Of a stretch of DNA of 52,536 bases, positions 1,556-51,230 are shown in pieces (position 1 is the stretch's first letter; each line of letters begins with the position of its first letter). Under the pieces are notes generated by a model. That model was not told the DNA's origin, searched no databases, and worked only from the letters and a program-made list of their open reading frames with translations. Source of the stretch: a virus. Taxonomy: Duplodnaviria > Caudoviricetes. Both the position numbers and the translations under genes were made by a program. The stretch covers positions 1 to 52,536 of IMG/VR virus record IMGVR_UViG_3300043372_000056. One strand, given 5' to 3'.

Positions 1556-3552
1556 CAGGCAACTCCCTTCAAATAGGTAAGCGGAGATTTAGCATCCGGG
1601 CTGAATTTACCTCGGGCGAGGGTTTTGCCTTTGTGCTTGCGGATTTCCGCCCGCATTTCATCCAACCGCTTTGCACCCGCCTTGCTCGATCCATCACCGA
1701 GCATGGCGACGGTTTCCGCATCTATAACATACTCGCCATCAGAGAGTTTGGCATCAATTTCATCCGAGCGCCCGGTGCCGCCGCCTCGCACAAAACGAGA
1801 CATGGCATTCAAGCCGCCCTGCGCCATTGCCGGGGCTTTGTTGTATTCGCCGCCGCTGACCCGGTTCCAATTTTGCGCCATGAACTGATCGAGCGTAAGG
1901 TTGCTGCTTGCAGCGTCTGCTGAAAGTTTGTCCCAATCCCACACGATACTCGGGCGGTTGAAATATTCTTGCTGAGCGGGGGATAGGTTTCTGATTGCGC
2001 TCTGCACGGCGGGAGGCGCGGTTTTAGACGAACCCATGCCAGACAACGCCGCGAGAGCGGCACCGCCCGCAAGAAGTGGACCCAGCCGACCCAGAGTGCT
2101 GCCGGAGGATGTTGCACCGGTTGTCGCCGCCCCGACGCCTTCACCATAAGTGTCAGTGATATTTGGATTTGCGGTCAGATTTGTGGGTGCGGCTGCCTGC
2201 TGGGCAGACGGGTCCGTCATGCTAGTCATGAGCGCATTGTTGTTAAACGTAGGCGGCATAAGAGTGGGGTTTTCAGCCACCCCGGTGAGGCCGGTCAGGA
2301 ACGTGTTCCCGCCAAATCCTGGCGCAGCCGGTGCTGCGGTTGTTGTGGCTCCAGGGGCTGTGGGTGCCGCACCCGTGGCAATTTGTTGATTACCTTCGCC
2401 GCCGAAATCATAGCTGGCAACCGGGCTGGCATCGGATGCAGCCGGTGCTGCGCCGTTTGTCGTGTCGGCGGCGGGAGCAGCGGCAGACGACGATGTCAAG
2501 CTCGACAAAGACGGCAGGTTAGTTTTCAACAAGCCGCTGGCAAGACTGCCAAGACCGCCGAGACCACCGGCCTGCAAAGCCTCTGAAGGCGATTGGCCTG
2601 CGGTGAGGGCGTTACCGAAACCTCTTGTCGCTCCCGCCACCACGCGGTTCAAGTCGGCGTTCTCAATGCCGAGACCGCCCATCCCGCTAATGCCCGCACC
2701 AACAGCGCCTGTGATGGCCCCGGTGATCGGATCGCGGCCTTGGAGTGCGGAAGCACCGGCACCAGCCGCCGCGCCACCAAGAAGATTTGCCGTGCCTTCT
2801 GACAGACCCAAGCCAAACGCACTGTTGATCCCGCCACCCAGGACGTTACCTAGACCCGCGCCAATACCGCCGGTCACCGCCCCGGTTAGTGGATTTCCAC
2901 CGCCAATGGCAGATGACGCCGCGCCCATGGCAGCGCCACCCAACACGCCAGCCGCCGTGCTTGCGGAACTAAGCAACCCGCCAGTGAGGGCGCTACCGAT
3001 CATTCCGCCAATGCCGGGCACAATAATGCTAAGGGCAATGGGCGCAACCGCCGCCAAAACCTTGCCCCACTTTATTTTCTTTATCCAGCTTTTGTATTCA
3101 CGCAGCCCGGTGTTTGGGTTGATCGTTCCCGAACCACCCGCACGACGAAGCATCGCCGCTTCGCGCGGGTTGACGTGCGCCAGTTCAGTGTCACCGCCTC
3201 GACCCCGCGCGGCCAATTGCCGGGCGGCAACGCTCAAACCACCCCGGGCGTAACCTTTCTTCGACAGACGATCTTGCAGGCCATAGAGGGCGACGAGCAG
3301 TGACACAATATAAACTTGGTCGTATTGCTCGGGCAGCATCTCTTCATCAACCATGTCATCGGCAATGGCCTTAGACCTGATCTCTGCGTACTTGTTAGGA
3401 TTTTTGATAATCTTTTCAAGGGTTTCAATGCCCTCATCCAGATCGTCTGGCATGATTGGCATATTGACGACGGCGCGCTCCATGGCGTCCACCGCCTGGG
3501 CGAATTTCGGATCGCTTTGGGCGATCTGCATGATTTGTTCGCGCATCGACAT
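1555..3552 (-). CDS. Putative internal virion/ejection protein, Gly-rich with hydrophobic segments and two D-x3-A-x5-E domains
   Basis: 665-aa ORF after the tail nozzle; motifs YARGG...GRGGDTELAHVNPRE...INPNTGLREY and MAQGG...GTGRSDEIDAKLSDGEYVI. Confidence 0.7.
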   Translation of the reverse strand: MSMREQIMQIAQSDPKFAQAVDAMERAVVNMPIMPDDLDEGIETLEKIIKNPNKYAEIRSKAIADDMVDEEMLPEQYDQVYIVSLLVALYGLQDRLSKKGYARGGLSVAARQLAARGRGGDTELAHVNPREAAMLRRAGGSGTINPNTGLREYKSWIKKIKWGKVLAAVAPIALSIIVPGIGGMIGSALTGGLLSSASTAAGVLGGAAMGAASSAIGGGNPLTGAVTGGIGAGLGNVLGGGINSAFGLGLSEGTANLLGGAAAGAGASALQGRDPITGAITGAVGAGISGMGGLGIENADLNRVVAGATRGFGNALTAGQSPSEALQAGGLGGLGSLASGLLKTNLPSLSSLTSSSAAAPAADTTNGAAPAASDASPVASYDFGGEGNQQIATGAAPTAPGATTTAAPAAPGFGGNTFLTGLTGVAENPTLMPPTFNNNALMTSMTDPSAQQAAAPTNLTANPNITDTYGEGVGAATTGATSSGSTLGRLGPLLAGGAALAALSGMGSSKTAPPAVQSAIRNLSPAQQEYFNRPSIVWDWDKLSADAASSNLTLDQFMAQNWNRVSGGEYNKAPAMAQGGLNAMSRFVRGGGTGRSDEIDAKLSDGEYVIDAETVAMLGDGSSKAGAKRLDEMRAEIRKHKGKTLARGKFSPDAKSPLTYLKGVA

Positions 3553-3558
3553 GCTATA

Positions 3559-8557: not shown

Positions 8558-8796
8558 GATAACTCCGTTTCTTTGATAATAGCCGTTGATGTGTCTCTAT
8601 CAATGTTTAAAACGCCAAAGCAAACGATGTTATAATCTTCGCTATCTGATTCTTTTTCGCTTTTGATCGGAACGTGAATGTCTAGGTGCTTAAAAAGATA
8701 TTCTCGGTCATCTTCAAAAACACGCCAAACATGATCCATTGTGCCCCGTCCAGGTTTTCCACGCGACTTGTTGAACCGTATGCGGTACTTGTTCAT
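8554..8796 (-). CDS. Hypothetical protein
   Basis: 80-aa ORF with ATGA overlaps at both ends. Confidence 0.75.
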   Translation of the reverse strand: MNKYRIRFNKSRGKPGRGTMDHVWRVFEDDREYLFKHLDIHVPIKSEKESDSEDYNIVCFGVLNIDRDTSTAIIKETELS

Positions 8797-9467
8797 ATCA
8801 CTTCTGCCGGTGGAAGTGGCTTGCAGTGGTTTATAGGCGCGCTCTGTTGGACCGTTAGATTGAAATGCACAAACTTGATGGGCTTATTGCTAGCGTGCCG
8901 CGTGAAGGAGTGGGCAAGCCAAGCGTTTGAGAAGATCATCAGCCCAGGCTTAGGTTTAAAGTTAATCATGCTGCTGGCAACGGTAGCTTGCGAAGCATCG
9001 CTTTGCGGCAAGTCGATCATGGTTTTGGCAACGCGAGGATCATGGAACACCACGCGAGAAGCGTTCTCTGGCACCTCAAGGAAATAGAAGCCCACAATCT
9101 GCGCGCCATAACCGTGCGTATGCTGATCCATGGCAGAGTGTTTGTGATGCTCCTGCGTCCACATTTCGGTGAACATGACGTTCTTGTCTTCCATGGCGTA
9201 GCCCTGCTCGGCCAGGATGTTCCAAGCGGACATGCCAATAAACTGAGCAAACTCAAAAACGCGCGGGTCATCGTAATAGTTTCCGCTCATTATGGCGGGA
9301 TAGATTTCATCAACCGGCTTTTCTTGCTTTGCCAGAAACTCGTCCGACACAGCGTTGACTGTCGCTAGGAAGTCAGGACGCTCAACCGTGTAAATGGGAG
9401 CGCCAAAATAAAACGCCGCCTGCAATTGCGGTTGAACCGGCAATGCTAATGGTGCGGCATTACACAT
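8793..9467 (-). CDS. Putative 2OG-Fe(II) oxygenase (TIGR02466-like)
   Basis: W...HTH, GFYFLEVP, FHDPR, PKPGLMIFSNAWLAH motifs; likely start MCNAAP at 9467 overlapping the upstream stop. Confidence 0.75.
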   Translation of the reverse strand: MCNAAPLALPVQPQLQAAFYFGAPIYTVERPDFLATVNAVSDEFLAKQEKPVDEIYPAIMSGNYYDDPRVFEFAQFIGMSAWNILAEQGYAMEDKNVMFTEMWTQEHHKHSAMDQHTHGYGAQIVGFYFLEVPENASRVVFHDPRVAKTMIDLPQSDASQATVASSMINFKPKPGLMIFSNAWLAHSFTRHASNKPIKFVHFNLTVQQSAPINHCKPLPPAEVI

Positions 9468-9948
9468 TCGGCACTTCCTCCCACCGCCACCCAAAGAAAT
9501 CAAACTGGTGCAGTTTGCCATCATCTGGTCGAGATGGCGCTTGTTTCCAGCCGCTCTCAGCACCACACCAAAAAACAATCACCCCCTCCACCGGATCGGG
9601 ACGAGGTATCGGAGGGATATACGAGCAGGTTGCCTCGTCAAACACCCATGCCGACCAGTTTTCCGCCTGTGGCCGTGTTGCCCAAGCATCTTTGACAACT
9701 TGCTGCTTGGCTGCAATTTCAGTTTCAGTCATTGGCCGCAATGACCACACATCGGTCCAGACGCCATCAACTTTTTGATAGGTGGGTTGGTCAGATTCTA
9801 GAATTTCATATATGCCGGGGATAGGGCGTTCAACGCGAGTAAAAGGCTCCCAATGATCGGGAACAACACCAAACGCTTGGATAAGGTTGTCTTCAAGCGC
9901 GGGATGGTTGACGGGTTGGTCGCTTTCAACCTGAATAAACAAGTTCAT
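9460..9948 (-). CDS. Hypothetical fibre-associated protein (possible assembly chaperone)
   Basis: 162 aa; WVFDEATCSYIPPIPRP motif; follows the Gly-rich fibre tip gene. Confidence 0.65.
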   Translation of the reverse strand: MNLFIQVESDQPVNHPALEDNLIQAFGVVPDHWEPFTRVERPIPGIYEILESDQPTYQKVDGVWTDVWSLRPMTETEIAAKQQVVKDAWATRPQAENWSAWVFDEATCSYIPPIPRPDPVEGVIVFWCGAESGWKQAPSRPDDGKLHQFDFFGWRWEEVPNV

Positions 9949-10778
9949 TTGTCACCTGTGCAAGTAGAAGGAAATTGACGAGTGGTGCCGGGCCAGATTA
10001 TGCGGACTGCACCGGGAGACGAGGTATTACTGCCAGTACCGCCGCCATAAGTCCCACCACCAAACTCAGTACCGTTAGTTCCACCGGAACCACCTTTTCC
10101 ATTTTTTGAAGCGCATGTACTCGCTGCGCCGCTAGTTCCTTGCCCAAGAATACCCACGCCACCACCACCTACTGCCGCGCCGAGTACATTACCGTCTTGC
10201 CCGTACCCGCCACCGCCACCGCCACCTGCGCCTGCTGTTCCAGCATTGCCCCCCGCATTGCCTCCAATACCTCCAGCGCCCGAGTACCCACCTGCGCCGC
10301 CACCGGCTCCCCATAACGGGCCAACGCATTGATTCCCCGTTCCACCACACCCGCCATTTCCACCGCCGTCTCCAGTGTATGTTCCACCAACAGCCCTTGT
10401 TGTCGGGTTTGGTTGGCCTGCGCCGCCTCCACCCTTGACTACTCCAGTAGAAACAAAATAACTATCATTTCCATTGGTGGTGGAGGTAGCGAGTGCGCCA
10501 ACAACAACAGTATATGAACTACCTGGGGTGACTGCATAGTTATTTTTGTACCCCAAACCAGCACCAGCCCCACCCCCACCATTTGCAGGATTTATACCCG
10601 TCTTTTGATTGCCGCCAGTACCAACAGCTACAACAGAAACGCTAGTTACACCAGCTGGAGCAACCCAAGAATAAGTGCCTGGTGTAGTGTACGCTTGCTG
10701 GCCCGGTGGAGCTACAAAAATACCAGCAAACCCAAACCCTCTAGCGGAACCCGCGCCTCTTGTGATGATTGTTGGCAT
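9945..10778 (-). CDS. Glycine-rich fibre tip / adhesin-like protein
   Basis: 277 aa; YTTPGTYSWVAPAGVTSVSVVAVG head, GGGGG repeats, GAVRIIWPG end. Confidence 0.7.
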   Translation of the reverse strand: MPTIITRGAGSARGFGFAGIFVAPPGQQAYTTPGTYSWVAPAGVTSVSVVAVGTGGNQKTGINPANGGGGAGAGLGYKNNYAVTPGSSYTVVVGALATSTTNGNDSYFVSTGVVKGGGGAGQPNPTTRAVGGTYTGDGGGNGGCGGTGNQCVGPLWGAGGGAGGYSGAGGIGGNAGGNAGTAGAGGGGGGGYGQDGNVLGAAVGGGGVGILGQGTSGAASTCASKNGKGGSGGTNGTEFGGGTYGGGTGSNTSSPGAVRIIWPGTTRQFPSTCTGDK

Positions 10779-15332: not shown

Positions 15333-15875
15333 CTACTTCTTGGAAGCCTTGCGGGCTTCCGACATGCCAATCGCAACAGCCTGCTTGCGGTTCGTCACCA
15401 TGGGGCCGTTCTTGCTGCCGGAATGCAGTTCACCGGCTTTGAACTCGCCCATGACCTTGCCGACCTTGGACATGCCGCCCTTGGCCATGCCGCAGTCACT
15501 TATGCCGCCCTTGGCCATACCGCCTTTGGCCATGGCACGCATGGGCATGGCAGGGGCGCGAGCCATTGCGGCTTGGCGGTTTGCCAGAACTTGAGCCGTG
15601 GCCGCTTGAGCGGGAGTCATCGCCATGCCGCCCATAGCCATGTTCACCGAACCCTTGGCATGCGGCATCGGTGCGCCCTTGCCGTCAGACAGGAGGGTCT
15701 TAGCGGTGTTCTCCTTCTTGCTATAGAGCATGTCGCTCTTCGGGGCGGGCGAAGCGGCAGGCTTGGTTGACTTCATGTTACCCATAGCCATGCCGCCCTT
15801 GGCATAACCCGGTGCCGCCGTCTTACCGGCGGACGGAAACGTAAACTCAGAGACGTATTGCAGCGTCTTACCCAT
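15333..15875 (-). CDS. Small basic Met/Ala/Gly-rich protein with tandem MAKGG motifs and DUF6496-like C-terminus
   Basis: YAKGG, MAMGG, 3x MAKGG; KVMGEFKAGELHSG...RKQAVAIGMSEAR. Confidence 0.75.
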   Translation of the reverse strand: MGKTLQYVSEFTFPSAGKTAAPGYAKGGMAMGNMKSTKPAASPAPKSDMLYSKKENTAKTLLSDGKGAPMPHAKGSVNMAMGGMAMTPAQAATAQVLANRQAAMARAPAMPMRAMAKGGMAKGGISDCGMAKGGMSKVGKVMGEFKAGELHSGSKNGPMVTNRKQAVAIGMSEARKASKK

Positions 15876-20145: not shown

Positions 20146-20165
20146 TTCATCTCCTTTCAGATGAA
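20146..20165 (-). promoter_or_regulatory. RBS-sequestering hairpin UUCAUCU-GAAAGG-AGAUGAA
   Basis: 7-bp perfect stem ending 2 nt before the scaffold ATG; contains the GroES stop codon. Confidence 0.7.
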
Positions 20166-20887: not shown

Positions 20888-23485
20888 CTATGGATTGGGG
20901 TTGATGCCGGTGCCGGTACTGACCGCCACCTTCTCGCCGGTCGCCATCTCGGCAGCGGCAAGCAATTTGGCGGTGTCGTTATCCGCCTGATTCATGCGCT
21001 CGCGAGAAGCAAGTTCCGCCGCCTTGCGCTCGTTCTCGGCGGCTTCCTTAAGCTGGTCGGCCCGCAGCTTCTCAACGAGTTCGATCTGCTTGCCCTGGAG
21101 CTTCGCCTGTTCAAGCTGGGCCTGCATCGCAAGACGCTGCTGCTCAAGTTGAGCCTTCTGCTGCTCAAGTTGAGCTTTCTGCTGATCAGACTGGGCCTGC
21201 ATTGCAAGACGCTGTTGATCAACCTGAACACGCTGCTGATCAACCTGAGCGCGCTGCTGGTCGGTCTGGGCGCGCTGCTGAATGGCCATCTGCTGCACCT
21301 GGGCACCAAGCTGGGCGACCTGCATGCTGCTGTCAGGCGGCATCTGCGGCTGGGGTGCAAACTGCTGGGCGGCCTGGTCGATAGCGGCGAGTTCCTGCGC
21401 CATCCCGCCCAACTGCTGCTCGATGTACTGCTGAACTTGCATGATGAGCTTGGCCTGATCCTCGGCCTCTTCTGGGATCAGTTCCTTTCTCTGAGCAATA
21501 TCAACAGAGTTATGAGCCTCAACGAGGTAATAATTCAGCAGGTGGTCGCGCAAATGCACCGAAATCGGATACAAAAACGTCTTGGTGATCGCCGGATTGC
21601 TGCCAAATAGCGGCGATTTCAGGAATGCCATGTGGATCATGATGTGAGCGAGGTGATCCTGCTTTGGCAGCACATAAACAGGCCGACCCATGGCGGCAGC
21701 GACGTTTTCGCTGACCGGGTCCATGTTATCCTTGCCCGGTTCCGGCTGGAGAACCTCATCTGCCGGGACTTTCAGGGTGCGGAGGAAGATTTCCTCGACC
21801 TTGCGGGGGTCATATAGCTGCGGTATCGCCGCTGCCCGCGCCATGATCGCCTGTATCTGGGCAAAACGCTGGGTTTCGGAGAAAATTGCCGGGTCACTGA
21901 CCGGCACGACGTCGAGCGGGCCATCAAAATCGGACGGGTCGATCTCCAGCCCGTCAGATTGGGCCGCGATGTCCTCTTCGGTCAGATATGCCGAGTTGAT
22001 CCGGTGCAGAATCTTGAAACACCGGGCCATCGAGTTGTGCAGGCGAGCGTGAATGCTCGAGAACACCACCATGCCCTGCTCGATCAGGGCCATCGTGGTG
22101 CCGACCGGCTGGTTGGCGTTCTGATCGCTCAGCTTCTCGAAGGAAGTCTGGATGACGCCCTTACCGGCATCAACCAAGAACCCCAAAAGCTGGAACAGCG
22201 TCGGGCTGGGCGGATTGAAAGGCATCGGCATGGCGATCTTGCGGACGTCGTCGACAAGAGCACCGCCATCCATCTCGACCACTTCGGTCGGCTGGAGGTT
22301 GATCGTCTGCCCGCCAGGGCCACCCTTGAGCTTCAGGAGAGTGGGGATGTTCTGGATGTGGGCGCTATCCAGCAAAGCGCGCAGGGCACCTGTAGCGGCT
22401 CCTGAGAGGCCCCCAATCATATGCGTCAGGCCAATGGGGTACGCACCGCGCCAAGGCACGAACGGGAACTCGACAATCCAATCGAGTTCCTGGTGCCGGG
22501 CATCATCCGCTTCCCAGTTGCGATAGAGTGCCAGGGCCTCGCCGGTCGACTTGTCGACGCTCAGAATGTACGGGCAGAGGTCTTCGTCTTCGATGTCGAG
22601 GTAGGTGTAGATTTCAAAGATGGTCCGCAGGCCATCCTCGTTGTAGCTAGTCGATTTGCGACCCTCAATCTTGTCGTTGGCAATCGTCGCCTTGCTGAAC
22701 TCGGGATCATCGGGATACCCCAGGTCAACGTCGATATACATGCCCGCCTTAACGCGCTTCAAGTACTCCATCTTCGTGACGTACTGAACATGCGTCTTAC
22801 GCTCGGCGGTGTAGAAGTTCGTGGCGGCAAACGGCAGATACACGTCGTCAATCGGCACAAACTCGGCCTGCGGACGACGGTGCTGCGGGTTCCACATGAA
22901 TTTGAGGTATTGACCGCCGCCGAGCGGAAGCTGGGTGCTCAGTTGCTCCAGTTCGCTGCGGAACTCGGGCATCTGCTGCGTGGTCTGCCAGTTCATAAAG
23001 GCGGCTTTACGCTCAGCCTTTTCGAGCTTGGCTTTGTCCGCTTCGCCGTAAATTTTGCTCTTAACCGGCCCGTTCGACGGAAAAATTTCTTTCATGAAGC
23101 GTGCGGAGAAATCCACGCAGGCTTCGACGAGCATTGGGTGAACGACTTTGTTCGCGCCGCTGAACTGAGCACCGCCGGGGGCATCGTCACCCAGGCCGGT
23201 ACGGCGCAGCCCTTCCTCGTACAGCTTGTCCCGCTTTTCGCGGGCCTCCTTGTCGCGCTCGATCTTATCGAGCAGGTCGCTGACAACATCCTTCAGCGCC
23301 GCCTGATCGACCTCTTCGACAATGTTTGCGAAGTGCTCGAGGTGGCGCTTCTCATCCTTGCTGTTCTCGAGCCGGATAATCGCGCCGCCGTCTTCGGTAT
23401 CCTCGACCTCGAGATTGTCCTCGTCATCGAGTTCAATCATCTCGCCGGGCTTGTCGTCGTCATCGTCTTTGAGAGTGTCAGACAT
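20888..23485 (-). CDS. Portal protein (P22-like, with Gln-rich C-terminal barrel)
   Basis: 865 aa; VVHPMLVEACVDF, QPVGTTMALIEQG, SSIHARLH, DVVPVSDP; QQR/QQK heptads at the C-terminus. Confidence 0.85.
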   Translation of the reverse strand: MSDTLKDDDDDKPGEMIELDDEDNLEVEDTEDGGAIIRLENSKDEKRHLEHFANIVEEVDQAALKDVVSDLLDKIERDKEAREKRDKLYEEGLRRTGLGDDAPGGAQFSGANKVVHPMLVEACVDFSARFMKEIFPSNGPVKSKIYGEADKAKLEKAERKAAFMNWQTTQQMPEFRSELEQLSTQLPLGGGQYLKFMWNPQHRRPQAEFVPIDDVYLPFAATNFYTAERKTHVQYVTKMEYLKRVKAGMYIDVDLGYPDDPEFSKATIANDKIEGRKSTSYNEDGLRTIFEIYTYLDIEDEDLCPYILSVDKSTGEALALYRNWEADDARHQELDWIVEFPFVPWRGAYPIGLTHMIGGLSGAATGALRALLDSAHIQNIPTLLKLKGGPGGQTINLQPTEVVEMDGGALVDDVRKIAMPMPFNPPSPTLFQLLGFLVDAGKGVIQTSFEKLSDQNANQPVGTTMALIEQGMVVFSSIHARLHNSMARCFKILHRINSAYLTEEDIAAQSDGLEIDPSDFDGPLDVVPVSDPAIFSETQRFAQIQAIMARAAAIPQLYDPRKVEEIFLRTLKVPADEVLQPEPGKDNMDPVSENVAAAMGRPVYVLPKQDHLAHIMIHMAFLKSPLFGSNPAITKTFLYPISVHLRDHLLNYYLVEAHNSVDIAQRKELIPEEAEDQAKLIMQVQQYIEQQLGGMAQELAAIDQAAQQFAPQPQMPPDSSMQVAQLGAQVQQMAIQQRAQTDQQRAQVDQQRVQVDQQRLAMQAQSDQQKAQLEQQKAQLEQQRLAMQAQLEQAKLQGKQIELVEKLRADQLKEAAENERKAAELASRERMNQADNDTAKLLAAAEMATGEKVAVSTGTGINPNP

Positions 23486-26400
23486 ATCCAGCCTCGATTT
23501 GATTGGCGAGCGTGTTTACCGCGTCAGGATCATAGATAGCAGGTTGAGCACTGACCGCGCCACCCTCGGCATATTTTTGGTCTAGGTCAGCAACTGCCGC
23601 ACCCGCTGCAACCGGCGCTGCGCCAAACATCAATCGCTCAAACTGGCGAATCTGCGCCGTTCGGTCAGCATCATCCCTCGATGCCAACCGGTTGTAATAT
23701 CGGATGTCATCAACACCGTACCGGCGAAGCAAATCTGTCACGTCTTTCGATGCTTGCACAGGAACCACCGCGCCTTGGAACTCGTTCAGCGGCACTATCC
23801 GGCGAGGCTTGGCCTCGAAATAGGTGGCGGGCAAATCGCGGCCTGCTTCCAGATGTGCCCGCGTGCGTTCAAGCAGGTCTTCGGGAATTGCGTTGCCGTA
23901 ATAGTTGCGATTGATATATTCCATGCCGCCGGGGCCACGTTGCACGGCTTCGGCCATGTTGCGAGTGTGGCTATCAATGAAATTAAAATTATCACGAATG
24001 CTATCTGGCAGTGCCTCGCGAAACTCTTGACGCAAAGCACCTAGTTGATTCTGCCAATCCTCAACAGACTTATCCGTGCGGGGCACCAAGCGGTCTCTCG
24101 CTCCACGCAGTTCGCTCATGTTGCGAAACTGCGGCGTGATCTGCCCCAGCAGCCAATTATCGGTGATGAAATCCTCGCCACCACGCCATGGATCATTGGT
24201 CATGACACGCAAGGCGTTTCGAGGCGTGTGCGGTAAAAGGCGCGATTCCCCGGTGTCGTCGTTGTAAAGACGCACATATTCTTTTTCTCGGTCACGAACT
24301 GTTTTCGGTATGACAGATGGATAACGCGGCGTGTAGGCGTCGCGCGCGTAGACCGGGGTGCGCCTAGGATCGACAGTCTGCGGCGATGCTATCAATGAAA
24401 TTTCACCGAAGCTGTCCATCGGATCATCGGCGCGCGAGATGCCAATTGAAGGGGCCACGACAACGCCTTCGTTATTGGCAATCTTCTCCAACCCCGCCTG
24501 CCGAACATTGTGCATGGCCACCATCGGCGGCTCATCCGGCGTTTGGCGGCCTAACGCCCTACCCACAGCGCGACGCAGCCCACCCGCTTCCGCCTCGCTC
24601 GGCTCCATCGCCATCAGAGCCGTCGAACCTGCCAGCCGGGCCATACGACCCCCCGGCCCAAGCGCCACCATCAGGGCCGCATCCAGAGGGCTCTGCGGCA
24701 GGAAGATGTCCGACGCCAACTGGGCAGCATCATAGCCTGCGCTGCGTATAGCCCGAGCCTGTTCGGCATTGGTTGACTCGGTGGTGCGGCCCGTGTCGCG
24801 CTTCATGCGCTCGAGCAGGCGGCGGTCATACTCCTCGTCGCTCATGACGCGGCCACCCTCGGCATACCGCTGATCAAGTTCTTCGAGGCTCGGCGCGGCT
24901 TCGCCTTCACGGGCGAGGATCGCAGCGGGTGCCACGCCTGCCAGCGGGATCATGTTGCGCGTGTAGAGGCGCAGCACCTCCTCCGGTGGGATGTCCAAAG
25001 CCTGGGAGGTGATTGACATGCGCTGGTTGAGCAGTTCCGGCACCGTGTGGGCCTCGGATGCCAAGCCGGTGCGAGGGCCATAGTGAAACCACATCAGGGC
25101 CTGGGCATCGGCAGGCGTCAGCCCCAGCCGCTCGGCGATGTTCGTCGTGATGTCGTTGTAAATCGGATACTCGGTCGAAATGCTCTGGCCGCGCACCTTT
25201 TGGCCGCTGGGGCGGGCGACGAGTATCTCACGCAGTTCGTCGTCACTCATCCCACGAACGACACCCTCAGCGTTGGGTGTGTAAGCGTCGACATACTCCC
25301 GATATTTTGCGGCGGTATCAAACGACGACGCCGGGAGACCGCCGGGGTTCACGTCGTTGTAGATCATGTTAACGGCCCGGACGTTGTGAACGTCGGCGGT
25401 CACGGCAGTGCGGTCACCAGAGATGTTGCGCCCAAAGACGGTAGGCTTCGGGTTCTGGGCCAGACTGACCGTCCCTTCCAGCAAGCCTTGTGTCAGGGCC
25501 GGGTGCTGGTCGTAGATCATGCCATAACCGGAACCAGGGCCGGTCACGTTTTCGACGGTGTTCTTGTCTATCGGCAGGCCGCGCGCCATCCGGTTCTGGA
25601 GGAACGCTGAATTGAGCACGTTCTGCTCGGTGTCGGTGCGGGGGCTGGTGCCCGCAATAGCCTGGGATTCCTGGCGGATGCGGCGCAGGGCCTCATCGTG
25701 GGAAACACCCTGCCCGCGCAGGACGTCATAGACCGGGCGCATGTTGTAGAACTCACCGGCACGGGCCGATGCGATCTGGGCCGGTGTCGCACCGGGCACC
25801 TCTTCACCACGCATGATGCGTGCGATGGGGTCCAGATCGCCAACGATCCGGTCCATGGTGGTGCCGTATCTTTCCGCCAGATCGGATGCCAGACCAGCCG
25901 CCGCCCGCGATCCGGGCAGTGATTGTGTCGGTGAGATATTCTGAATGCGAAGTGATTCGAGTTCCTGAGCGACGTTTGACGGCCCAGCTTCCAATGGCTG
26001 GTCAAAACGTGCTGGCGGAAACAACTGATCTTCTGGCCGGGGCTGAACACGGGCGTCGACCGGCAAGCGCATCTGGGCGGCGCGGAAGTCGAGCACCCGC
26101 TGAGAGAGTTCGTTCGCCCGCTCCAGATCATCACCCTCGAGGCGTGGCACACCAGCCCCTGGCTGGGGTCGGGTGGCGATAGCCATCGCCTCGTCGGGCG
26201 TCATGGTGGGCTTGAGAACGCTCCGGGGCGGGTTGTTGCCGCCCATTACCGCCCTCGGGTTTTCGACAACAGGCTCAGGGGCCGAGCCCCGCACCGCACG
26301 ACGAAGCGCGCCCACGGTACGCTTCACGCGGCCACCGCTTTCATACTTCTGATGCAGATCAGCCAGCCCACCCTCAGCGTAACCCATAGCCCGACCAATC

Positions 26401-27434
26401 CGCTCACGGGCTTCGGCGGCCATGATGGATTCAGGAGCCACGTCATAGCGCGCGGCGAGCCTGTCCAGCACCATGGCGTTCAGTTGGTCCGCCGTCAGTT
26501 CCTCGCGCGGGGCCGGGCGCGGTGCGCGAGGCGTGCGGATGCGGTTTGCTCGGACGTGATAATCAAAAGCCGGAATTGGAGTCGCCACACCAGGAACTTC
26601 AACAAGGTTACCACGGGAATACTTATGATCAAGTTCAGCGAGGCCACCCTTGGCATAGCCGGGCATGCCAGCATTCCGCATGACGGTGGGCACATAGGCC
26701 CGCGTCTCAGCAATGTCGGGGATAGCGTTGCCCGCTTCTGCCACCCGTCGAGGGCCTGCGTTGTACGCCGCCAGGGCCAGCGTCATGTCACCGCCAAACC
26801 GGTCAAGCTGCTGGCGCAGGTAACGTGCGCTGCCCTCGATGTTCTGCATCGGGTCACGAGGATCAACGCCCAAATCGCGCGCCGTGCCCGGCATCAGCTG
26901 GCCGAGACCGAGAGCGCCCACCCGGCTCACCGCATTAGGGTCAAACCGGCTCTCTCGATGTAGCAGCGACAGCAGCACGTTGGGCGGCAGGCCATACCGC
27001 TCGGCCATCTGCGTGGCCGTCGCCACATACGGGTTCTCTGGGTTGAACCGGACATGCAGGGGCTGAGGTTCGGCACCGGGCACCTGCGGCAACACAGCGG
27101 GCGGGATGGGATTGCCGTCAGCACCCAACTGAGGGGGCCGTGGGGGCACCGGGAGTGCCTGGGCAGGGGTACGGGCCTGCGGCGCGGCAGCGGCCTGTGG
27201 CGCGGCCTGCTGGGGCGGTGGCGGCGGTATCACGGCAGGCGGCGTCGGCGGGATCGGCAGAGGCTGTTGGCGCTGGCCACCAAACAGCGGGGCGGTGGGA
27301 CCCGCACGCCGCTCACGGGCGAAAGCAGCTATCGGGTCAAACGGGGCCTCGCGGTTTGCAGCATTTGACCGACGCATCTGCTCGAGCAGGCCCAAGGCGG
27401 TCATGCGGGGAGGGGCGTTGTTGCGTTCGGCCAT
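23478..27434 (-). CDS. Multidomain (polyvalent) putative virion protein: Pro-rich N-terminus, SLT lytic transglycosylase, HhH-glycosylase-like (DUF7178-like) domain, ART-like domain
   Basis: SLT motifs HRESRFDP, GALGLGQLMPGTA, LAAYNAGP, ETRAYV (~26680-27040); the other domains are from motif recall; domains are separated by YxxGG motifs. Confidence 0.75.
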   Translation of the reverse strand: MAERNNAPPRMTALGLLEQMRRSNAANREAPFDPIAAFARERRAGPTAPLFGGQRQQPLPIPPTPPAVIPPPPPQQAAPQAAAAPQARTPAQALPVPPRPPQLGADGNPIPPAVLPQVPGAEPQPLHVRFNPENPYVATATQMAERYGLPPNVLLSLLHRESRFDPNAVSRVGALGLGQLMPGTARDLGVDPRDPMQNIEGSARYLRQQLDRFGGDMTLALAAYNAGPRRVAEAGNAIPDIAETRAYVPTVMRNAGMPGYAKGGLAELDHKYSRGNLVEVPGVATPIPAFDYHVRANRIRTPRAPRPAPREELTADQLNAMVLDRLAARYDVAPESIMAAEARERIGRAMGYAEGGLADLHQKYESGGRVKRTVGALRRAVRGSAPEPVVENPRAVMGGNNPPRSVLKPTMTPDEAMAIATRPQPGAGVPRLEGDDLERANELSQRVLDFRAAQMRLPVDARVQPRPEDQLFPPARFDQPLEAGPSNVAQELESLRIQNISPTQSLPGSRAAAGLASDLAERYGTTMDRIVGDLDPIARIMRGEEVPGATPAQIASARAGEFYNMRPVYDVLRGQGVSHDEALRRIRQESQAIAGTSPRTDTEQNVLNSAFLQNRMARGLPIDKNTVENVTGPGSGYGMIYDQHPALTQGLLEGTVSLAQNPKPTVFGRNISGDRTAVTADVHNVRAVNMIYNDVNPGGLPASSFDTAAKYREYVDAYTPNAEGVVRGMSDDELREILVARPSGQKVRGQSISTEYPIYNDITTNIAERLGLTPADAQALMWFHYGPRTGLASEAHTVPELLNQRMSITSQALDIPPEEVLRLYTRNMIPLAGVAPAAILAREGEAAPSLEELDQRYAEGGRVMSDEEYDRRLLERMKRDTGRTTESTNAEQARAIRSAGYDAAQLASDIFLPQSPLDAALMVALGPGGRMARLAGSTALMAMEPSEAEAGGLRRAVGRALGRQTPDEPPMVAMHNVRQAGLEKIANNEGVVVAPSIGISRADDPMDSFGEISLIASPQTVDPRRTPVYARDAYTPRYPSVIPKTVRDREKEYVRLYNDDTGESRLLPHTPRNALRVMTNDPWRGGEDFITDNWLLGQITPQFRNMSELRGARDRLVPRTDKSVEDWQNQLGALRQEFREALPDSIRDNFNFIDSHTRNMAEAVQRGPGGMEYINRNYYGNAIPEDLLERTRAHLEAGRDLPATYFEAKPRRIVPLNEFQGAVVPVQASKDVTDLLRRYGVDDIRYYNRLASRDDADRTAQIRQFERLMFGAAPVAAGAAVADLDQKYAEGGAVSAQPAIYDPDAVNTLANQIEAGYV

Positions 27435-27446: not shown

Positions 27447-27722
27447 TCACCATTTTACCTTGGCCGCCCAAAACGCGGCACTGCTCTTACCCTTGGCGAT
27501 GTTCTCGCCATGCCGCGCCTTGAAGCTGGCGCGCTTCGCCTTCATGCGATCCGACTCACCCTCTTTCGGCTTGCCAGCGGTGCTCGCGCCCTGCTCGCCA
27601 AAGCGGATGACTTTCTCTTTACCGTCGAAACATGCCTTGACGACGTGCGACTTTGTCGCGTGGTCCGGCGTGCGGCGCGGCTTGTTGCAAGCCATCGCGG
27701 CCTTGTCGACGGGCTTGGTCAC
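27447..27722 (-). CDS. Small basic conserved phage protein
   Basis: KSHVV...IRFGEQG...SFKARH...SAAFWA..VKW. Confidence 0.75.
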   Translation of the reverse strand: MTKPVDKAAMACNKPRRTPDHATKSHVVKACFDGKEKVIRFGEQGASTAGKPKEGESDRMKAKRASFKARHGENIAKGKSSAAFWAAKVKW

Positions 27723-31484: not shown

Positions 31485-31582
31485 TAATTTTTTTTCGAAA
31501 TTCGTCGAAAGGCACTTTTCTTTTTTATCGCCTGCCGGTAAACAGATTTCAGGCAATCACGCCACCCAGAACGGATAACTCA
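31485..31582 (+). promoter_or_regulatory. Early promoter/leader element, copy 1
   Basis: AT tract, AAAGGCACTTTTCTTTTT, TAAAC, CAGGCAATCACGCC, GATAACTCA; same spacing as copy 2. Confidence 0.6.
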
Positions 31583-31583
31583 G

Positions 31584-31856: not shown

Positions 31857-31859
31857 GCC

Positions 31860-32141: not shown

Positions 32142-32144
32142 GCG

Positions 32145-33070: not shown

Positions 33071-33081
33071 GGAACACGACT

Positions 33082-46418: not shown

Positions 46419-47255
46419 ATGGTAGCCATCCCGCCCCCTCCTGAGCAGCAGATCGTAAACCGCATCTATGCGGCAATTGAGAAGGAAAAGGTCAACCCTG
46501 ACCTGTACCTGGGGCGGCTTGGTTCCTCTTTCATAGGCGAGGAGTGCGTTCGTCAAATCTGGCTTGAGTGGCGAGGTTTCGCCCGTGGTCAGTTTGATGG
46601 GCGCATGCTTCGCCTATTTGAGACGGGGCACTTGCAAGAGGAGCGGATCGTGGCAGATCTGCGCCGGGCAGGGTTTGCCGTCTGGGACAAGCGCGAGGAT
46701 GGTCGACAGTTTGAGTTTGTCGACCAGACCGGGCATTTCATCACAAAGGTCGACGGTGTGGTGAAAAACGTCCCAGAGAGCGATGAGCCGCACCTGCTGG
46801 AGATTAAGACCCACAACAGGAAGAGCTTCGACAGCCTGTTGAAGAAGGGCGTGCAAGGCGCGAAGCCGCTGCATTACGCCCAGGTGCAGATCAGCATGGC
46901 GCTGGGTGGATTCACCCGGGCCTTGTATGTGGCACTCTGCAAGGACGACGAGCAATTTTATGTGGAGCGTGTCAAGGAAGACAAAGCCTTCCAGGCTAAA
47001 CTACAAACCAAGATCGGCAAGCTGGTTGAGGCTCAGTTGCGCCCGGCAGGCATCAGCGACGATGCGTCGTCGTTTGCCTGCAAGTTTTGCAGCATGAAGG
47101 CGGTCTGCACCAAGGAAGCCCCGCCCCTGCATCACTGTCGCACATGCGCCATGTGCTCGGCAGGTGCCGAAGGCAAATGGGTTTGCAACCTGAACAGCTT
47201 CACCCTGACCCTGTTTGAGCAGCGCCTGGGCTGCGAACATTATGAGGCTTTATGA
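46419..47255 (+). CDS. Cas4-like PD-(D/E)xK exonuclease
   Basis: GSSFIGEEC, DG...LEIKT, HYAQVQ, CKFC....C cluster. Confidence 0.85.
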   Translation: MVAIPPPPEQQIVNRIYAAIEKEKVNPDLYLGRLGSSFIGEECVRQIWLEWRGFARGQFDGRMLRLFETGHLQEERIVADLRRAGFAVWDKREDGRQFEFVDQTGHFITKVDGVVKNVPESDEPHLLEIKTHNRKSFDSLLKKGVQGAKPLHYAQVQISMALGGFTRALYVALCKDDEQFYVERVKEDKAFQAKLQTKIGKLVEAQLRPAGISDDASSFACKFCSMKAVCTKEAPPLHHCRTCAMCSAGAEGKWVCNLNSFTLTLFEQRLGCEHYEAL

Positions 47256-47713: not shown

Positions 47714-47715
47714 CC

Positions 47716-49836
47716 TTACTCTGTGTAAGGCTCTGGGATGACGCCTGTAGCCGTTCCGCCGATGACCCCTGCCTCACCCATGCTGACGCGGCGCTCGCCC
47801 CGTGCGGCCCTCTCAGATGCGTTCTCGAGCACCCGCACAGCCGCTGCCACTTCTGCCGGATCGCTTGACATAAGCATCCGCGCAGTGCGGTCAGCAATCT
47901 CGTCGCTGACCGCCGCCCCGCGAAACGCCCGAATGGCCATGTTGGCCAAAGACGAACCCCAGCCGCCGGTAGCCATTTCAGCAGCGGCTGCCCCCACGTC
48001 AGGGCCTTCGTCAAACCTCTCCCGAGCCTGAGTTCTGCGGGCTGTAGGTGAACCGGCCAGGATGCGATTGGACTGCTGGAAAAGTTGCGCCTCACGTTCA
48101 AGCGCAGCCTGGAAGAGGCTGTACTGGGCCGGGCTGTCAAACATGGCCTCAAGTTTCCGCCGGGTTTCAGGCGAACCAATGAGACGTTGGGCAGAATTGA
48201 AATTGCCTGACGGGTTCATGATCGTGCTGTAGATGTTGCGAGCCGCGCCCGTGCGGAACGCCTCGCGCTCGGGACCATTCATGCTATTAAAAAGTTTGGC
48301 AACCTCTTCGTGATCTAAACGATTGAAATCGTTCATCCCTGTACGAAGTGCGTTTACGACTTCTACGTCACCTCGATACTCATCAATCGCACGCCGGTAT
48401 TCAGGGACTAGCTCCTTGGTCCGATCACGAAGCGCGTCTCGCATATCACGCAGTGAAGCGGCTGAGGTGCGAGCAACAGCATCCGGTGACGAGAACCCCG
48501 TATTAACTTGGGCGTCGAGAGCGCGCTTCATGTAATCGAGCGTGCGAACATCCGGCACGGTTTGCGCCAGTTCAACAATGTCTTCTCCGGTATCGGGATT
48601 TCTGCCGGTGACGCGATAAATTTCCCGTAAGCGATATTCTTCAGGATCAAAAGCCGACCCAGTGCGAATTGCACGAGCTTGTGCTGCCGAAGCATCCTCT
48701 GCCGCAAGGCGACGGGCGGTGCTCCAAGCATTTCGATATTGCGGAAGTTCCAGCAGGCTTGTGATCTGCGGATCAAAGACTTCACCAACACGATACGCTT
48801 CGCGATATGCTGGTTCAGCGCGGGCACGCATGGTGCTGACAAGAACATTCTCATCGGCATATGCGTCACCCCGGGTGTTGAGACCCTCACGAACTTGGCC
48901 ATAAACCCGTTCACGGGCACCTTCACGCTGATCACCCAATGCGGCTTCAACCCGGCGACCGCTGGGGCCGCTGCGTTGGGCCACAGTTTCGGCAAGGTCA
49001 ACCAGGGCCGGGTCCACGTTGGCGACAACAGAGGGCACGTTCATCGCCCTATCCGCTGCAAGGCGCGTGGGAATATCGGAGGGCTGCATGCCTGCTTCAG
49101 CCAAGGCCCTGTTAACCCGATCAGCGGCACTGCGTTCAACAGTTGCAGGCGTGGGAGACAGGCGCTCGCTCAGCCACCTCCAGGCCGATCCGGCACCTCT
49201 CGCAACAGCGGGGACAGCCGCACCCATTGGGGCGCCGATAGAAGCCCCAACCGTTCCACCTTCAACGCGGCTGTCAGGTTCAGCCATGCCCGCGCCAGAG
49301 ATGCCGCCTTGTGTGGCACCGGTAACGGCCCCTCGACCGTAAGGAGTTGCCAACATGCGCGCGACGCGAGGGGCCTGACCTCCGGTTACCGCGCCCACGG
49401 TGCCGAGCAATGCCGCGTCTCGAACAGTGCCTTCGTCAATCTGATCGTTGATGCCCACGCCAGTTGCCGCCCCAGTTGCCGCACCGGCACCCACCCGAGC
49501 CGCTGTATTGCCTGCGATGCGGTTGGCAATAGTGCCCAGGGCACCGGCAGTGCGAGCCGTTGTAGCGGCTGCGGCAGGGGCTGATGCGCCGCCTGTGAAC
49601 GGCACAGCCATGTAAGCGCCGACCGCCGGAAGCACACCGCCCGCAAACTCTGCGATAGGTGCCAGATACGGGTTGCGCTCTTGAAATCGGTTATATTCTT
49701 GGTTGATGCGCGTGCGCTCACCTTCATACGGACGCCCCGTGATGCGCGAACGAAGCCAAGCTTCCGCCTCATCGCCCCATCCCATGCCGACGCCTTGGCC
49801 GATTAGGGCGCGGGCAAAATTAAGACTATCGCTCAT
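47716..49836 (-). CDS. Putative internal virion/ejection protein
   Basis: 706 aa; QGVGMGWGDE N-terminus, Gly/Ala hydrophobic stretches, helical C-terminus; last gene of the late operon. Confidence 0.7.
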   Translation of the reverse strand: MSDSLNFARALIGQGVGMGWGDEAEAWLRSRITGRPYEGERTRINQEYNRFQERNPYLAPIAEFAGGVLPAVGAYMAVPFTGGASAPAAAATTARTAGALGTIANRIAGNTAARVGAGAATGAATGVGINDQIDEGTVRDAALLGTVGAVTGGQAPRVARMLATPYGRGAVTGATQGGISGAGMAEPDSRVEGGTVGASIGAPMGAAVPAVARGAGSAWRWLSERLSPTPATVERSAADRVNRALAEAGMQPSDIPTRLAADRAMNVPSVVANVDPALVDLAETVAQRSGPSGRRVEAALGDQREGARERVYGQVREGLNTRGDAYADENVLVSTMRARAEPAYREAYRVGEVFDPQITSLLELPQYRNAWSTARRLAAEDASAAQARAIRTGSAFDPEEYRLREIYRVTGRNPDTGEDIVELAQTVPDVRTLDYMKRALDAQVNTGFSSPDAVARTSAASLRDMRDALRDRTKELVPEYRRAIDEYRGDVEVVNALRTGMNDFNRLDHEEVAKLFNSMNGPEREAFRTGAARNIYSTIMNPSGNFNSAQRLIGSPETRRKLEAMFDSPAQYSLFQAALEREAQLFQQSNRILAGSPTARRTQARERFDEGPDVGAAAAEMATGGWGSSLANMAIRAFRGAAVSDEIADRTARMLMSSDPAEVAAAVRVLENASERAARGERRVSMGEAGVIGGTATGVIPEPYTE

Positions 49837-51230
49837 GGTGTCCCTCCTGGGGCGGGCTGTGCGGGCTCTGCGGGTCGCTGGCGTCGATATTCACCGCTAG
49901 TGATGTCTTGAACAAGTCTACGCTGGCGCTCCCGAGACCTTTCAATTTCTTCCAGAGTGCGTTCAAGAATTTCACGACGTTGTGCCGGGGTGCGAGAAAG
50001 AGCGCCTTGAAGGTTATCCAAAGCGGCGCGTTCGCTGTCGGTGATCTGACTACCAAACGATTCCCGCAACTGAGCAATTGCCGCTTCGCTCAAAAGAGTG
50101 CGAATGCGAGCCGTATTTCTGGTTTTCGGATCGTCCGCTCCCGTTCTGGATCGGAACTCATATAGCGCCGTATCGCCGACAGATGTGCCGAAAGTATTAT
50201 CGTTAATTCTAAGAGCCTCGCTGATAGTTCTTTGGGCTCTTTCAGTTGCGCTCAAAGTGGCTTCTGCGTCGAGCCGCATGCGCTGTTCGGCAGGTGTAAG
50301 TTCTTTGTCGCGTTCAGCTTTGCGAGCAGCTTCCGCCTGACGAAGATCAAGACCGGCTCGCTGCATCTCAAGTTGAGCTTGCCTAAATGCTTCGCCGCTT
50401 TCAATCTTGCTGTTGATATACCTAGTAACAAATTGACTATGCTCAGGCGTCCCTGGCCGCAGACCCATGTCCTCTGCCGCCTTACCAGCATCAGATTGCG
50501 GGCGGCCCGATGCGAGGTATTCCTTGATGACTTCGCGCGCCATCGTGCGGCGTTCCCCGGTTTCCTGTGCGGCCAAAGCCTGCGCCGTGGTCAAATCCTG
50601 TCGGGCACCGGTCATGCGGATTTCCTGCGCCTTGAGGGCGAGGTTCCGCATATCGTTTTCTTCCGCCCGGCGACCCTTGGCGTATTCGCTCATCTCCTTG
50701 CCGACAAGCGACAGGTTCTCAGCAAACCGGCCCGTCTTGGTGGGCGAACCAAAAGCCGCCGCCAGTCGGAAATACATCTCCGCGCGCGATGTCGGGCTCT
50801 CGGTGCGCTGAGACATCTGCTGGATCATCCGGGTGAAAGCCTCGGTCTCGGTCTGAGCCCTGCGCCGAGATTCCGCCAGTTCCTGGGTGTATTGGTTCGA
50901 TGGCGGCGCATACCGGTTGAGCAGGGCCTCGAGTTCCGCCGTGCGATCAGGTGGCGCAACAGTGGCGGGGCCAGCCGAAGTTGTCGTTGCAGCCGAAGTT
51001 GTCGTTGCAGCCTGCGGGGTGACGACAACCGGCGCAGCCGCTGGGGCTACATCACCGCCTTCGCCACCGTTGGGATCAGCCTGACCGGAGCCATCGTTGT
51101 ACGCCATCGCCATGTCATTGAGGCCGCCCTCGTCAAAACGACGACGCACTGAACCGCCCTTGGCGTAGGCCGACTTCTTGGTCGGTGCCCCGCGATATTT
51201 CTGGTTCAGCCGATACAGATCAGATTTCAT
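49833..51230 (-). CDS. Putative internal virion/ejection protein
   Basis: 465 aa, coiled coil; N-terminal YAKGG and FDEGG motifs; GGAG RBS. Confidence 0.7.
   Translation of the reverse strand: MKSDLYRLNQKYRGAPTKKSAYAKGGSVRRRFDEGGLNDMAMAYNDGSGQADPNGGEGGDVAPAAAPVVVTPQAATTTSAATTTSAGPATVAPPDRTAELEALLNRYAPPSNQYTQELAESRRRAQTETEAFTRMIQQMSQRTESPTSRAEMYFRLAAAFGSPTKTGRFAENLSLVGKEMSEYAKGRRAEENDMRNLALKAQEIRMTGARQDLTTAQALAAQETGERRTMAREVIKEYLASGRPQSDAGKAAEDMGLRPGTPEHSQFVTRYINSKIESGEAFRQAQLEMQRAGLDLRQAEAARKAERDKELTPAEQRMRLDAEATLSATERAQRTISEALRINDNTFGTSVGDTALYEFRSRTGADDPKTRNTARIRTLLSEAAIAQLRESFGSQITDSERAALDNLQGALSRTPAQRREILERTLEEIERSRERQRRLVQDITSGEYRRQRPAEPAQPAPGGTP

Follow-up and report, generated by a model that had tools for sequence, protein, structure and literature searches.

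Cutting beside a Gly-Gly pair at the module borders of injected phage proteins has several precedents, as the cases of T5, P22 and Tal indicate, and one of them has the form A-x-G-G. T5 pb2 is converted into pb2* and pb2C by a cut after R1127, between a hydrophobic segment and a metallopeptidase motif (Linares et al., 2023; PMC10038345). The lambda protein gpH is processed to gpH* and gpHC by the removal of about 14 kDa from its glycine-rich C-terminal region, and the 2025 report of this processing gives the exact site and the catalysis as unknown (PMC12617516). The first 20 residues of the P22 ejection protein gp7 are removed by a host protease, oligopeptidase A (PMC4992974), and in Tal of TP901-1 and Tuc2009 the glycine-rich junction NGGGNSGGGD is processed, Gly-to-Arg changes blocking the processing (PMC11409707). 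Polyvalent proteins of phages and conjugative elements have also been described, and processing was proposed for them (Iyer, Burroughs, Anand, de Souza and Aravind, 2017; PMC5512222). The present analysis concerns a pentapeptide, [YFM]A.GG, here called the tag, in the IMG/VR record IMGVR_UViG_3300043372_000056. The window, which is the whole stretch of 52,536 bases, represents the complete circular genome of a short-tailed phage (podovirus). The tag and its variants YESGG, FDEGG and FVRGG are carried by four proteins encoded on the minus strand, named p665, p180, p1318 and p465 after their lengths. The motif is real, ancient and selected, within this phage family it marks the seams in the set of injected proteins, and tape measure proteins have it too. 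The four carriers are probably the proteins that this phage injects, and the pentapeptide is most likely a cutting or joining signal.

All the pentapeptides listed in the original prediction, which had been made from the letters of the sequence, are present in the translations of the four minus-strand open reading frames (ORFs). In p665, YARGG is located at residue 101 (3238..3252), MAQGG at residue 576 (1813..1827) and the variant FVRGG at residue 587 (1780..1794), immediately ahead of a GEYV element; MAQGG is found in 53 distinct relatives as [MKLY]A[RQN]GG. The five tags of p180 are YAKGG at residue 24 (15792..15806), MAMGG at residue 79 (15627..15641) and three copies of MAKGG at residues 115 (15519..15533), 120 (15504..15518) and 130 (15474..15488), the last of which lies, according to translation and Pfam, at the edge of the DUF6496 envelope. 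p1318 contains YAKGG at residue 260 (26643..26657), which translation and alignment place 25 residues past the SLT envelope, YAEGG at residue 352 (26367..26381), the variant YESGG at residue 364 (26331..26345), 12 residues past the preceding tag, and two further copies of YAEGG at residues 857 (24852..24866) and 1288 (23559..23573), the last tag being 30 residues from the C-terminus. The YAKGG of p465, at residue 22, and its variant FDEGG, at residue 32, were found exactly at the predicted positions (51153..51167 and 51123..51137), and the first of them has a homologous tag position in relatives.

The companion helices, also named in the original prediction, are likewise all present on the minus strand. 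Two of them, LAELDHKY (p1318 residues 265-272; 26619..26642) and LADLHQKY (residues 357-364; 26343..26366), coincide with predicted helices at 265-273 and 357-365, and two others, LEELDQRY (residues 850-857; 24864..24887) and VADLDQKY (residues 1281-1288; 23571..23594), were assigned from the sequence pattern. The fifth, LYRLNQKY (p465 residues 5-12; 51195..51218), is the local form of the conserved helix MGYELNRLMKQYGV, with which the p465 family begins. Tags and helices alternate in p1318 as YAKGG-LAELDHKY, YAEGG-LADLHQKY-ESGG, LEELDQRY-AEGG and VADLDQKY-AEGG, and the commonest distance from tag to tag among relatives is exactly 12 residues (29 cases).

The enrichment of the motif was determined in 56 curated ORFs (16,507 residues) by shuffling within each protein, so that the composition of each was kept. 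The enrichment check which had been suggested for the prediction gave a divided result. The loose pattern [YFM]..GG was weakly enriched, with 21 copies observed against 11.5 expected, a number reached in 15 of 2000 shuffles. The A-containing forms, however, were strongly enriched: [YFM]A.GG was observed 15 times against 1.45 expected and YA[KRE]GG 7 times against 0.06, neither count being reached in any of the 2000 shuffles. For the helix pattern L..L[DNH][QH][KR]Y, 5 copies were counted where 0.003 would be expected, a number that none of 1000 shuffles reached. Three A-containing copies were found outside the four carriers, namely FAGGG in the ORF at 31557-32201, MALGG in a Cas4-like exonuclease (46419-47255) and MATGG in a 706-residue protein (47716-49836), which is about the number that chance would give. 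DNA repeats were ruled out as the source of the tags, the highest pairwise identity over 51-nucleotide contexts being 63%; because the copies share no more than this, the repeat is in the peptide and not in the DNA. Selection acts on the peptide, not on the DNA.

Two scans of IMG/VR provided 158 loci, which contain 2432 ORFs (704,711 residues), and the ORFs were sorted by their best homologue in the window. The form [YFM]A.GG was present in 60 of 63 homologues of p665, in 52 of 75 of p465, in 16 of 17 of p1318 and in 7 of 9 of p180, as well as in 25 of the 30 ORFs that best match a 91-residue protein of the window; these ORFs include at least six stand-alone 91-residue proteins, the others being fused to the polyvalent protein. 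It was found in none of 81 portal proteins (64,114 residues) and in no capsid or terminase homologue of the 158 loci, and the portal, capsid and terminase of the window lack it too. The A-containing form had not been noticed in capsid or portal proteins in the original prediction either, and the idea of one shared, selected signal on otherwise unrelated late proteins is supported. A further 41 ORFs without a homologue in the window also contained the form, and inspection showed most of them to be alternative versions of the pre-portal gene or small proteins like p180. Low counts were obtained for homologues of the exonuclease (10), the primase (3), the 612- and 706-residue proteins (2 each) and the ORF at 31557-32201 (2). 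When distinct GG sites were counted, 232 of 1497 had the tag form in the carrier families versus 8 of 1530 in other families. The consensus of 341 distinct contexts is [G/K]-[Y/F/M]-A-[E/K/R]-G-G-[L/A]-[V/A], and the first position of the tag may in relatives also be W, K or L. Caulobacter phage RW, which is devoid of the polyvalent gene and of p180, has a single tag, located in its p665 homologue.

The relation of the tag to module borders is most visible in p1318 (23478..27434, minus strand), a multi-enzyme polyvalent protein encoded between the terminase and portal genes, with five tags between its modules. Its domains are SLT (residues 142-235), a DUF7178-like domain (589-693) and PBECR5 (971-1064); in Pfam, SLT (83.4 bits) and PBECR5 (53.2 bits) score above their cutoffs and DUF7178 below. 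p1318 thus combines at least two unrelated effector or enzyme domains in one polypeptide, which is one of the marks of a polyvalent protein. In relatives the gene ahead of the portal is likewise a mosaic, made up of SLT, CHAP, Phage_lysozyme2, ART-PolyVal, PcfJ, DUF7178, DUF6973 and ADP-ribosyltransferase domains. In 22 proteins with Pfam matches none of 82 tags lay inside a domain, against 10.2 expected, while 4 touched the start of DUF6496; from the end of a domain to the next tag the distance was 9-36 residues in 12 of 24 cases. An AlphaFold2 (AF2) model of p1318 residues 1-400, based on 11 aligned sequences, gave 10-residue blocks of the SLT domain a mean predicted local distance difference test score (pLDDT) of 52-84. 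The tags at 260 and 352 were located in loops and the companion motifs in short helices, within linkers of low confidence.

Module exchange takes place at the same positions. Among the breakpoints of BLAST alignments against p1318, 7 of 18 collapsed endpoints were at most 15 residues from a tag, against 2.0 expected (P ~0.002; related sequences were collapsed, yet are not fully independent). All 11 aligned relatives keep Y260, A261, G263 and G264, and the sequences diverge directly after the tag at 352. On the left of this tag the DNA of two relatives (L007 and L005) shares 93% and 83% identity with the window, and the identity is 97% and 98% to the right of the tag at 857, which is the second crossover point, and the switch point falls inside the 15-nucleotide tag. 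In a third relative (L023) an unrelated module begins directly after the tag at 352. The original prediction spoke of interchangeable internal proteins, and relatives do exchange or lose entire modules, the crossovers falling within the motif.

The C-terminal tail of p1318, AEGGAVSAQPAIYDPDAVNTLANQIEAGYV (residues 1289-1318; 23481..23570, minus strand), has 64-94% identity in relatives with different upstream modules, and almost all polyvalent proteins have their last tag 22-30 residues from the C-terminus, followed by a conserved helix Y-D/N-P-x-x-V/I-D/E-x-I-x-N-Q-I. At the other end stands the conserved 91-residue protein with the ending ...KVKW (27447..27722, minus strand; a PHROG member), which is encoded separately in the window, whereas many relatives have it as the unchanging N-terminal part of their polyvalent protein. 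All 17 distinct fused junctions have x-x-G-G-x-V directly behind ...KVKW; the first residue past the W is Ala in 8 of them, Asn in 6 and Lys in 3. In the window and in five relatives the 91-residue gene is separate, and all six proteins end exactly at that W. Since the stand-alone ORFs end there, the stop codon and new start of some phages occupy the place of the tag in others. A gene-split boundary between the large residue and the next one fits a cut at that bond; a plain linker would begin there too. The 91-residue protein and a neighbouring 55-residue protein (together 27447-27886, minus strand; PHROGs 7595 and 34011, respectively), located between the terminase and polyvalent genes, are very basic and highly conserved.

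A further line of evidence concerns tape measure proteins. PHROG matches and hhalign characterise p665 (1555..3552, minus strand; three tags) as a tape-measure-like ejection protein, which begins with a helical part, followed by a hydrophobic stretch of the Gly-zipper type, a spacer of low complexity and, at the C-terminus, a conserved module. This module (residues 560-665; 1558..1875, minus strand; MAQGG...FVRGGGTGRSDEIDAKLSDGEYVIDAETVAMLGDGS...) was defined in an alignment of 32 sequences, in which the tag is followed by G-x-G-S/T-G-R-x-D-x-I-x-A-x-L-S-D-G-E-Y-V...G-D-G-S with 26 invariant columns. Residues 554-622 are matched by the PHROG tape-measure families 6090, 3547 and 17300 (E 1e-4 to 8e-4), and the C-terminal profile aligns with the tape measure protein of Rhodococcus phage ReqiPine5 (hhalign 96.2%, E 2.4e-9), in which YATGG stands opposite MAQGG. 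The AF2 monomer of the module reached a pLDDT of 50, and for this reason it is not regarded as an autonomous fold. Homologues of residues 560-665 comprised 2831 near-length and 18 longer proteins, none of which had a relevant Pfam domain or name. The tag, with or without the GE-x-V element, is also present in phage DSL-LC04, Synechococcus phage MinM2 and Manatee Spring phage. In Manatee Spring phage (MW202675; L002:6222-9779), a protein of 1185 residues named "internal virion protein D" joins SLT, YATGG and a peptidase-S74-like self-cleaving motif (SDRRLKHDI...). Tail fibres are the usual carriers of such a motif, at their ends.

The tag peptide is also present in lambda and T5. In lambda gpH, FATGG is located at 733, with GEFVF behind it, and NLYRLMRGYATGGYV at 778, which is a complete helix-plus-tag unit; the segment from the GEFV element to YATGG is common to tape measure genes in 1009 phage records. 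In T5 pb2 the sequence around the cut reads NSFVPR, then, after the cut bond, AEGGMMYPGVSYQMGEHGTEVV. The tape measure model TIGR01541 gave 448.7 bits for lambda gpH and no match at E up to 1 for p665, p465, p180 or p1318, and none of the carriers matched any tape measure model of NCBIfam.

The two remaining carriers have the tag in other settings. p465 (49833..51230, minus strand), the third gene of the ejection cassette, consists of the N-terminal helix, the two tags and a conserved body (residues 88-455). Its relatives with a variable N-terminal extension have a tag 30-100 residues ahead of the conserved body, homologous to Y22 of the window. A complex prediction from alignments for the C-terminal 120 residues of the 949-residue repeat protein encoded next to it and the N-terminal 60 residues of p465 gave a score of 0.00, which, being made without controls, has no bearing either way. 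p180 (15333..15875, minus strand) is a small basic Met/Lys/Gly-rich protein with a C-terminal DUF6496 (PF20106, 42.9 bits against a cutoff of 24). Its family consists of small, disordered Met/Lys/Gly-rich proteins of 117-304 residues with many K/M-x-GG-S/M-M-K repeats (examples are L038:13491-13865 and L076:17638-18021), about half of which have DUF6496 at their end; outside this family the domain is known from small proteins of bacteria. Members of this family may be DNA-associated internal proteins.

The preferred explanation, to which a little less than an even chance is given, is that the tag forms part of a conserved inter-module joint, in which the bond from the large residue to Ala would be cut and the neighbouring helices would act as anchors. 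The joint has the form [Y/F/M/W/K/L]-A-x-G-G-x-[V or hydrophobic], usually beside an amphipathic helix of 7-8 residues, which may be either L-x-x-L-x-x-K-Y or, at C-termini, Y-D-P-x-x-V-D-x-I-x-N-Q-I. The putative cut corresponds to that mapped in T5 pb2 (R1127/AEGG; here and below a slash marks the cut bond). By this means a precursor with several enzymes or an anchor helix could be freed as separate pieces during assembly or after ejection, and the terminal helices (the N-terminus of p465 and the C-terminal tail of p1318) would keep the proteins in the particle up to that moment. A cut at Y22/A23 would remove 22 residues from p465, and cuts at the tags of p1318 would give computed pieces of 27.7, 10.1, 1.3, 53.4, 48.2 and 3.0 kDa. 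The scans revealed no prohead protease, C39 peptidase or other peptidase family (Pfam over 61 ORFs, PHROGs over all ORFs), and the Pfam search of p1318 and 21 polyvalent relatives revealed none either, zincin-like MPTase included. Since a peptidase of the phage's own cannot be recognised, the cut would be made by a host enzyme or by an activity that depends on assembly. For a cleavage role, as named in the original prediction, PR/AEGG of T5 pb2 is a direct precedent.

Several observations, among which the lack of a peptidase family in the 61 scanned ORFs has to be counted, weigh against such a cut joint. Cutting in this phage and its relatives is deduced from sequence and from analogy, and the apparent resemblance to T5 is short and was seen by eye. 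The tag cut in T5 precedes a GE-x-V element, which in the window is found in p665, whereas the tags of p1318, p465 and p180 are without it. The comparison of the p665 module with lambda gpH by hhalign gave the expected register with an E of 0.11, which is not significant, and that with T5 pb2 gave no match at the motif and one spurious alignment of 7 residues elsewhere. Because of these results, and because p665 has no TIGR01541 match, the links to lambda gpH and T5 pb2 are carried by the motif itself. The 12-residue tag pairs and the five tags of p180 fit multivalent binding or a structural unit better than cuts, since cuts there would give tiny peptides. A flexible linker would likewise lie at domain ends and gene-split points. 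Moreover, thirteen short p465 homologues have neither the extension nor the tag and phage RW has one tag, and therefore the tag is dispensable for a working ejection cassette.

A wider version of this explanation is possible, though on the doubtful side: large residue/A-x-G-G might be a general maturation code of tailed phages, in which tape measure, podovirus ejection and polyvalent precursors would be cut by one widely available host or assembly-triggered activity. If this were true, exact cut sites would be predicted, including F733/A734 of lambda gpH with a gpHC of 12,522 Da, and it would be explained how new effector modules plugged in at the joint by recombination still get released. The seven-residue joint gives residue-exact predictions for model phages (F733/A734 or Y778/A779 in lambda) and a rule to find module borders in uncharacterised injected proteins, and it points to a natural "plug-in" site for the exchange of anti-host enzyme modules. 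Full-text searches for the pentapeptides and for GE-x-V strings returned no relevant description of the motif in print, although other papers or supplements could hold one.

The fixed tag-helix-tag architecture with its 12-residue spacing may also be read differently, as a short linear motif of tag plus helix that plugs unrelated cargo into one partner (the portal, the capsid interior or an ejection protein) and stays uncut. This is unlikely, but it deserves serious attention. The unit is found at termini, namely at the N-terminus of p465 and in the C-terminal tail which is kept on polyvalent proteins with differing cargo, and the five copies in p180 suggest binding by avidity. The C-terminal module of p665, unfolded alone in the prediction, behaves as expected of a segment that becomes ordered only in a complex. 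Terminal helices are good candidates for docking elements, and C-terminal helices of T5 pb2 and lambda gpH are described as anchored in the tail tip (PMC10038345, PMC12617516). However, no partner is named by this explanation, and many tags are internal, between enzyme modules. Siphovirus tape measure proteins from phages of actinobacteria, enterobacteria and cyanobacteria contain the peptide as well, and these have no obvious partner in common with this podovirus.

The crossovers inside the 15-nucleotide tag, together with the clustering of breakpoints at tags, could be accounted for if the tag were a flexible Gly-Gly linker that no protein reads and that is kept alike because short shared DNA at the borders promotes the exchange of cassettes. 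Such a passive hinge, with which the low-confidence predicted loops and the untagged members of some families also agree, is improbable. A linker should keep its composition, yet here positions are fixed, namely the large residue, Ala and both Gly, as the four invariant residues at 260-264 illustrate. The excess of the tag form at the GG sites of carriers over those of other families is equally difficult to reconcile with a linker, as is the persistence of the peptide across very distant phages in DNA contexts that are at most 63% identical. Moreover, 15 bases are very short for homologous exchange alone.

The phage encodes a Cpn10/GroES homologue of its own (20157-20564, minus strand; PF00166, 36.8 bits versus a cutoff of 21.1), located between the portal and head-module genes and kept in relatives (35 homologues) and in phage RW. 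Its predicted mobile loop, VTKGGIILS, is close to AKGGM or AKGGI, from which the idea arises that the x-G-G-hydrophobic core of the tag might mimic the GroES mobile loop and recruit host GroEL to long, aggregation-prone proteins. The tail-protein cut of T5 is reportedly host-dependent, as Zweig and Cummings are said to have found in 1973. A role as a chaperonin handle is nevertheless very improbable, as the most conserved positions of the tag are the large residue and Ala ahead of GG, which are absent from GroES loops, and most tags have one hydrophobic residue only after GG. Chance or a low-complexity artefact of Gly/Ala-rich proteins, for which the merely two-fold enrichment of the loose pattern and the Gly-rich composition of p665 and p180 could speak, retains practically no probability and is refuted by the composition-keeping shuffles, which reached the A-containing counts in 0 of 2000 cases, by the GG-site counts, by the alignment and by the relatives, which keep both the position and the family restriction.

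The gene order of the window was established by PHROG and Pfam scans. The minus strand begins with the small and large terminase, the 55- and 91-residue proteins, p1318, the portal and the Cpn10/GroES homologue, continues with three head-module proteins, an HK97-type capsid protein, p180, SU10-type adaptors, fibres and the endolysin, and ends with a four-gene ejection cassette of p665, the 949-residue repeat protein, p465 and the 706-residue protein; the replication genes are on the plus strand. The minus-strand gene that runs off base 1 resumes in frame at base 52,536 and encodes 949 residues with no internal stop, and because it spans both record ends in frame the record is a circular or permuted assembly. 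The nearest cultured relatives are the Caulobacter phages RW, KcrB, RLK and GB2A (69% nucleotide identity in the portal region), and for part of p1318 the Roseobacter phages CRP-3 and CRP-212. The 949-residue protein (1-1555 and 51242-52536, minus strand) has two long arrays of repeats of about 17 residues, AAQPYLxRAxSQDIxG in the N-terminal half and GQTSGQLTxQQAQxLxN in the C-terminal half, and a conserved C-terminal tail, ...DWLSTQIRG.AP...SPSPLSQLATG.Y..KGL. Its relatives are 329-1464 residues long and differ widely in repeat number, and for this reason the protein may set a length.

The large terminase (27876-30470, minus strand; 864 residues) contains a LAGLIDADG_3 domain at residues 290-340. 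A segment that extends from near LGVWLGDGT to ...VTHN/S (the slash here marks the end of the segment) resembles an intein or a homing-endonuclease insert in the ATPase domain; the annotation of Caulobacter phage RW gives two coding sequences for the large terminase, with a methyltransferase gene between them. The structural module includes a 2OG-Fe(II) oxygenase gene two genes from that of a 277-residue glycine-rich protein with 33 GG dipeptides and a C-terminal RIIWPG (loci 8793-9578 and 9945-10778, minus strand). The two may be an enzyme-substrate pair for the hydroxylation of a structural protein. The tags were ruled out as targets of this oxygenase, because their x position and large residue vary. 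An early gene (32938-33687, plus strand) scores 42.8 bits with PF02767, the central domain of the DNA polymerase III beta sliding clamp, is labelled RusA-like by PHROGs, and may encode a clamp-like factor of the phage's own. For the 306-residue head-module protein the nearest ESM Atlas clusters are scaffold-like (score 0.86), which is a weak lead, and PDB sequence searches with p665, p180 and this protein gave nothing usable.

Compared with the known systems, T5 pb2 is the closest. Its cut, PR/AEGGMMYPG, corresponds to large residue/A-x-G-G-hydrophobic, the site follows a hydrophobic stretch and precedes a GE-x-V-like element as in the C-terminal module of p665, and the cut detaches a module from the remainder of the ejected protein. 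T5 differs in being a long-tailed phage with a single such site, the similarity is limited to the motif, and most tags of the window are without GE-x-V. In lambda, both FATGG (733) and the unit at 778 lie in the glycine-rich C-terminal region in which gpH is reported to be cut. A cut after F733 would give computed fragments of 79.8 and 12.5 kDa and one after Y778 fragments of 84.6 and 7.7 kDa, so that 12.5 kDa would be lost in the first case versus the reported ~14 kDa (PMC12617516); p665, unlike gpH, has no TIGR01541 match, and the profile comparison is that given above. The polyvalent proteins of PMC5512222 resemble p1318 and its relatives, which string SLT, CHAP, lysozyme, ART-PolyVal, PcfJ, PBECR5 and DUF7178 beside head genes, whereas the zincin-like MPTase processing domains proposed in that paper were not detected in p1318 or its relatives. 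The words "linker" and "glycine" are absent from the main text of the paper, and therefore the joint motif is not described there. P22 gp7 is similar in that a short N-terminal peptide is lost just ahead of a Gly-Gly run (SYPE/KGGKGG), although the site is shifted by one residue relative to the tag and lacks Ala, and the oligopeptidase trims termini only, not internal joints. Tal shares a processed glycine-rich junction between a structural linker and the catalytic domain of an injected tail protein (PMC11409707), but this junction is a poly-Gly/Ser run without large residue-Ala, in another protein family and host.

The original prediction had compared the tag with T4 capsid-targeting sequences and double-glycine (C39) leaders. 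These are, like the tag in the proposed joint, short removable peptides common to unrelated cargo, and neither analogy was upheld. Both are strictly N-terminal, whereas the tags of the window occur at internal and C-terminal as well as N-terminal positions, most of them at the former two. Both also need a dedicated protease, the gp21 prohead protease in T4 and C39 in the leaders, neither of which was found in the ORFs of the window; the 306-residue protein is scaffold-like at best, and no ORF has a C39 or ABC transporter domain in the Pfam scans. Moreover, double-glycine leaders are cut after GG, and the T5-type cut lies three residues ahead of GG. The closer analogy is the maturation of tape measure and ejection proteins, not the loading of head cargo.

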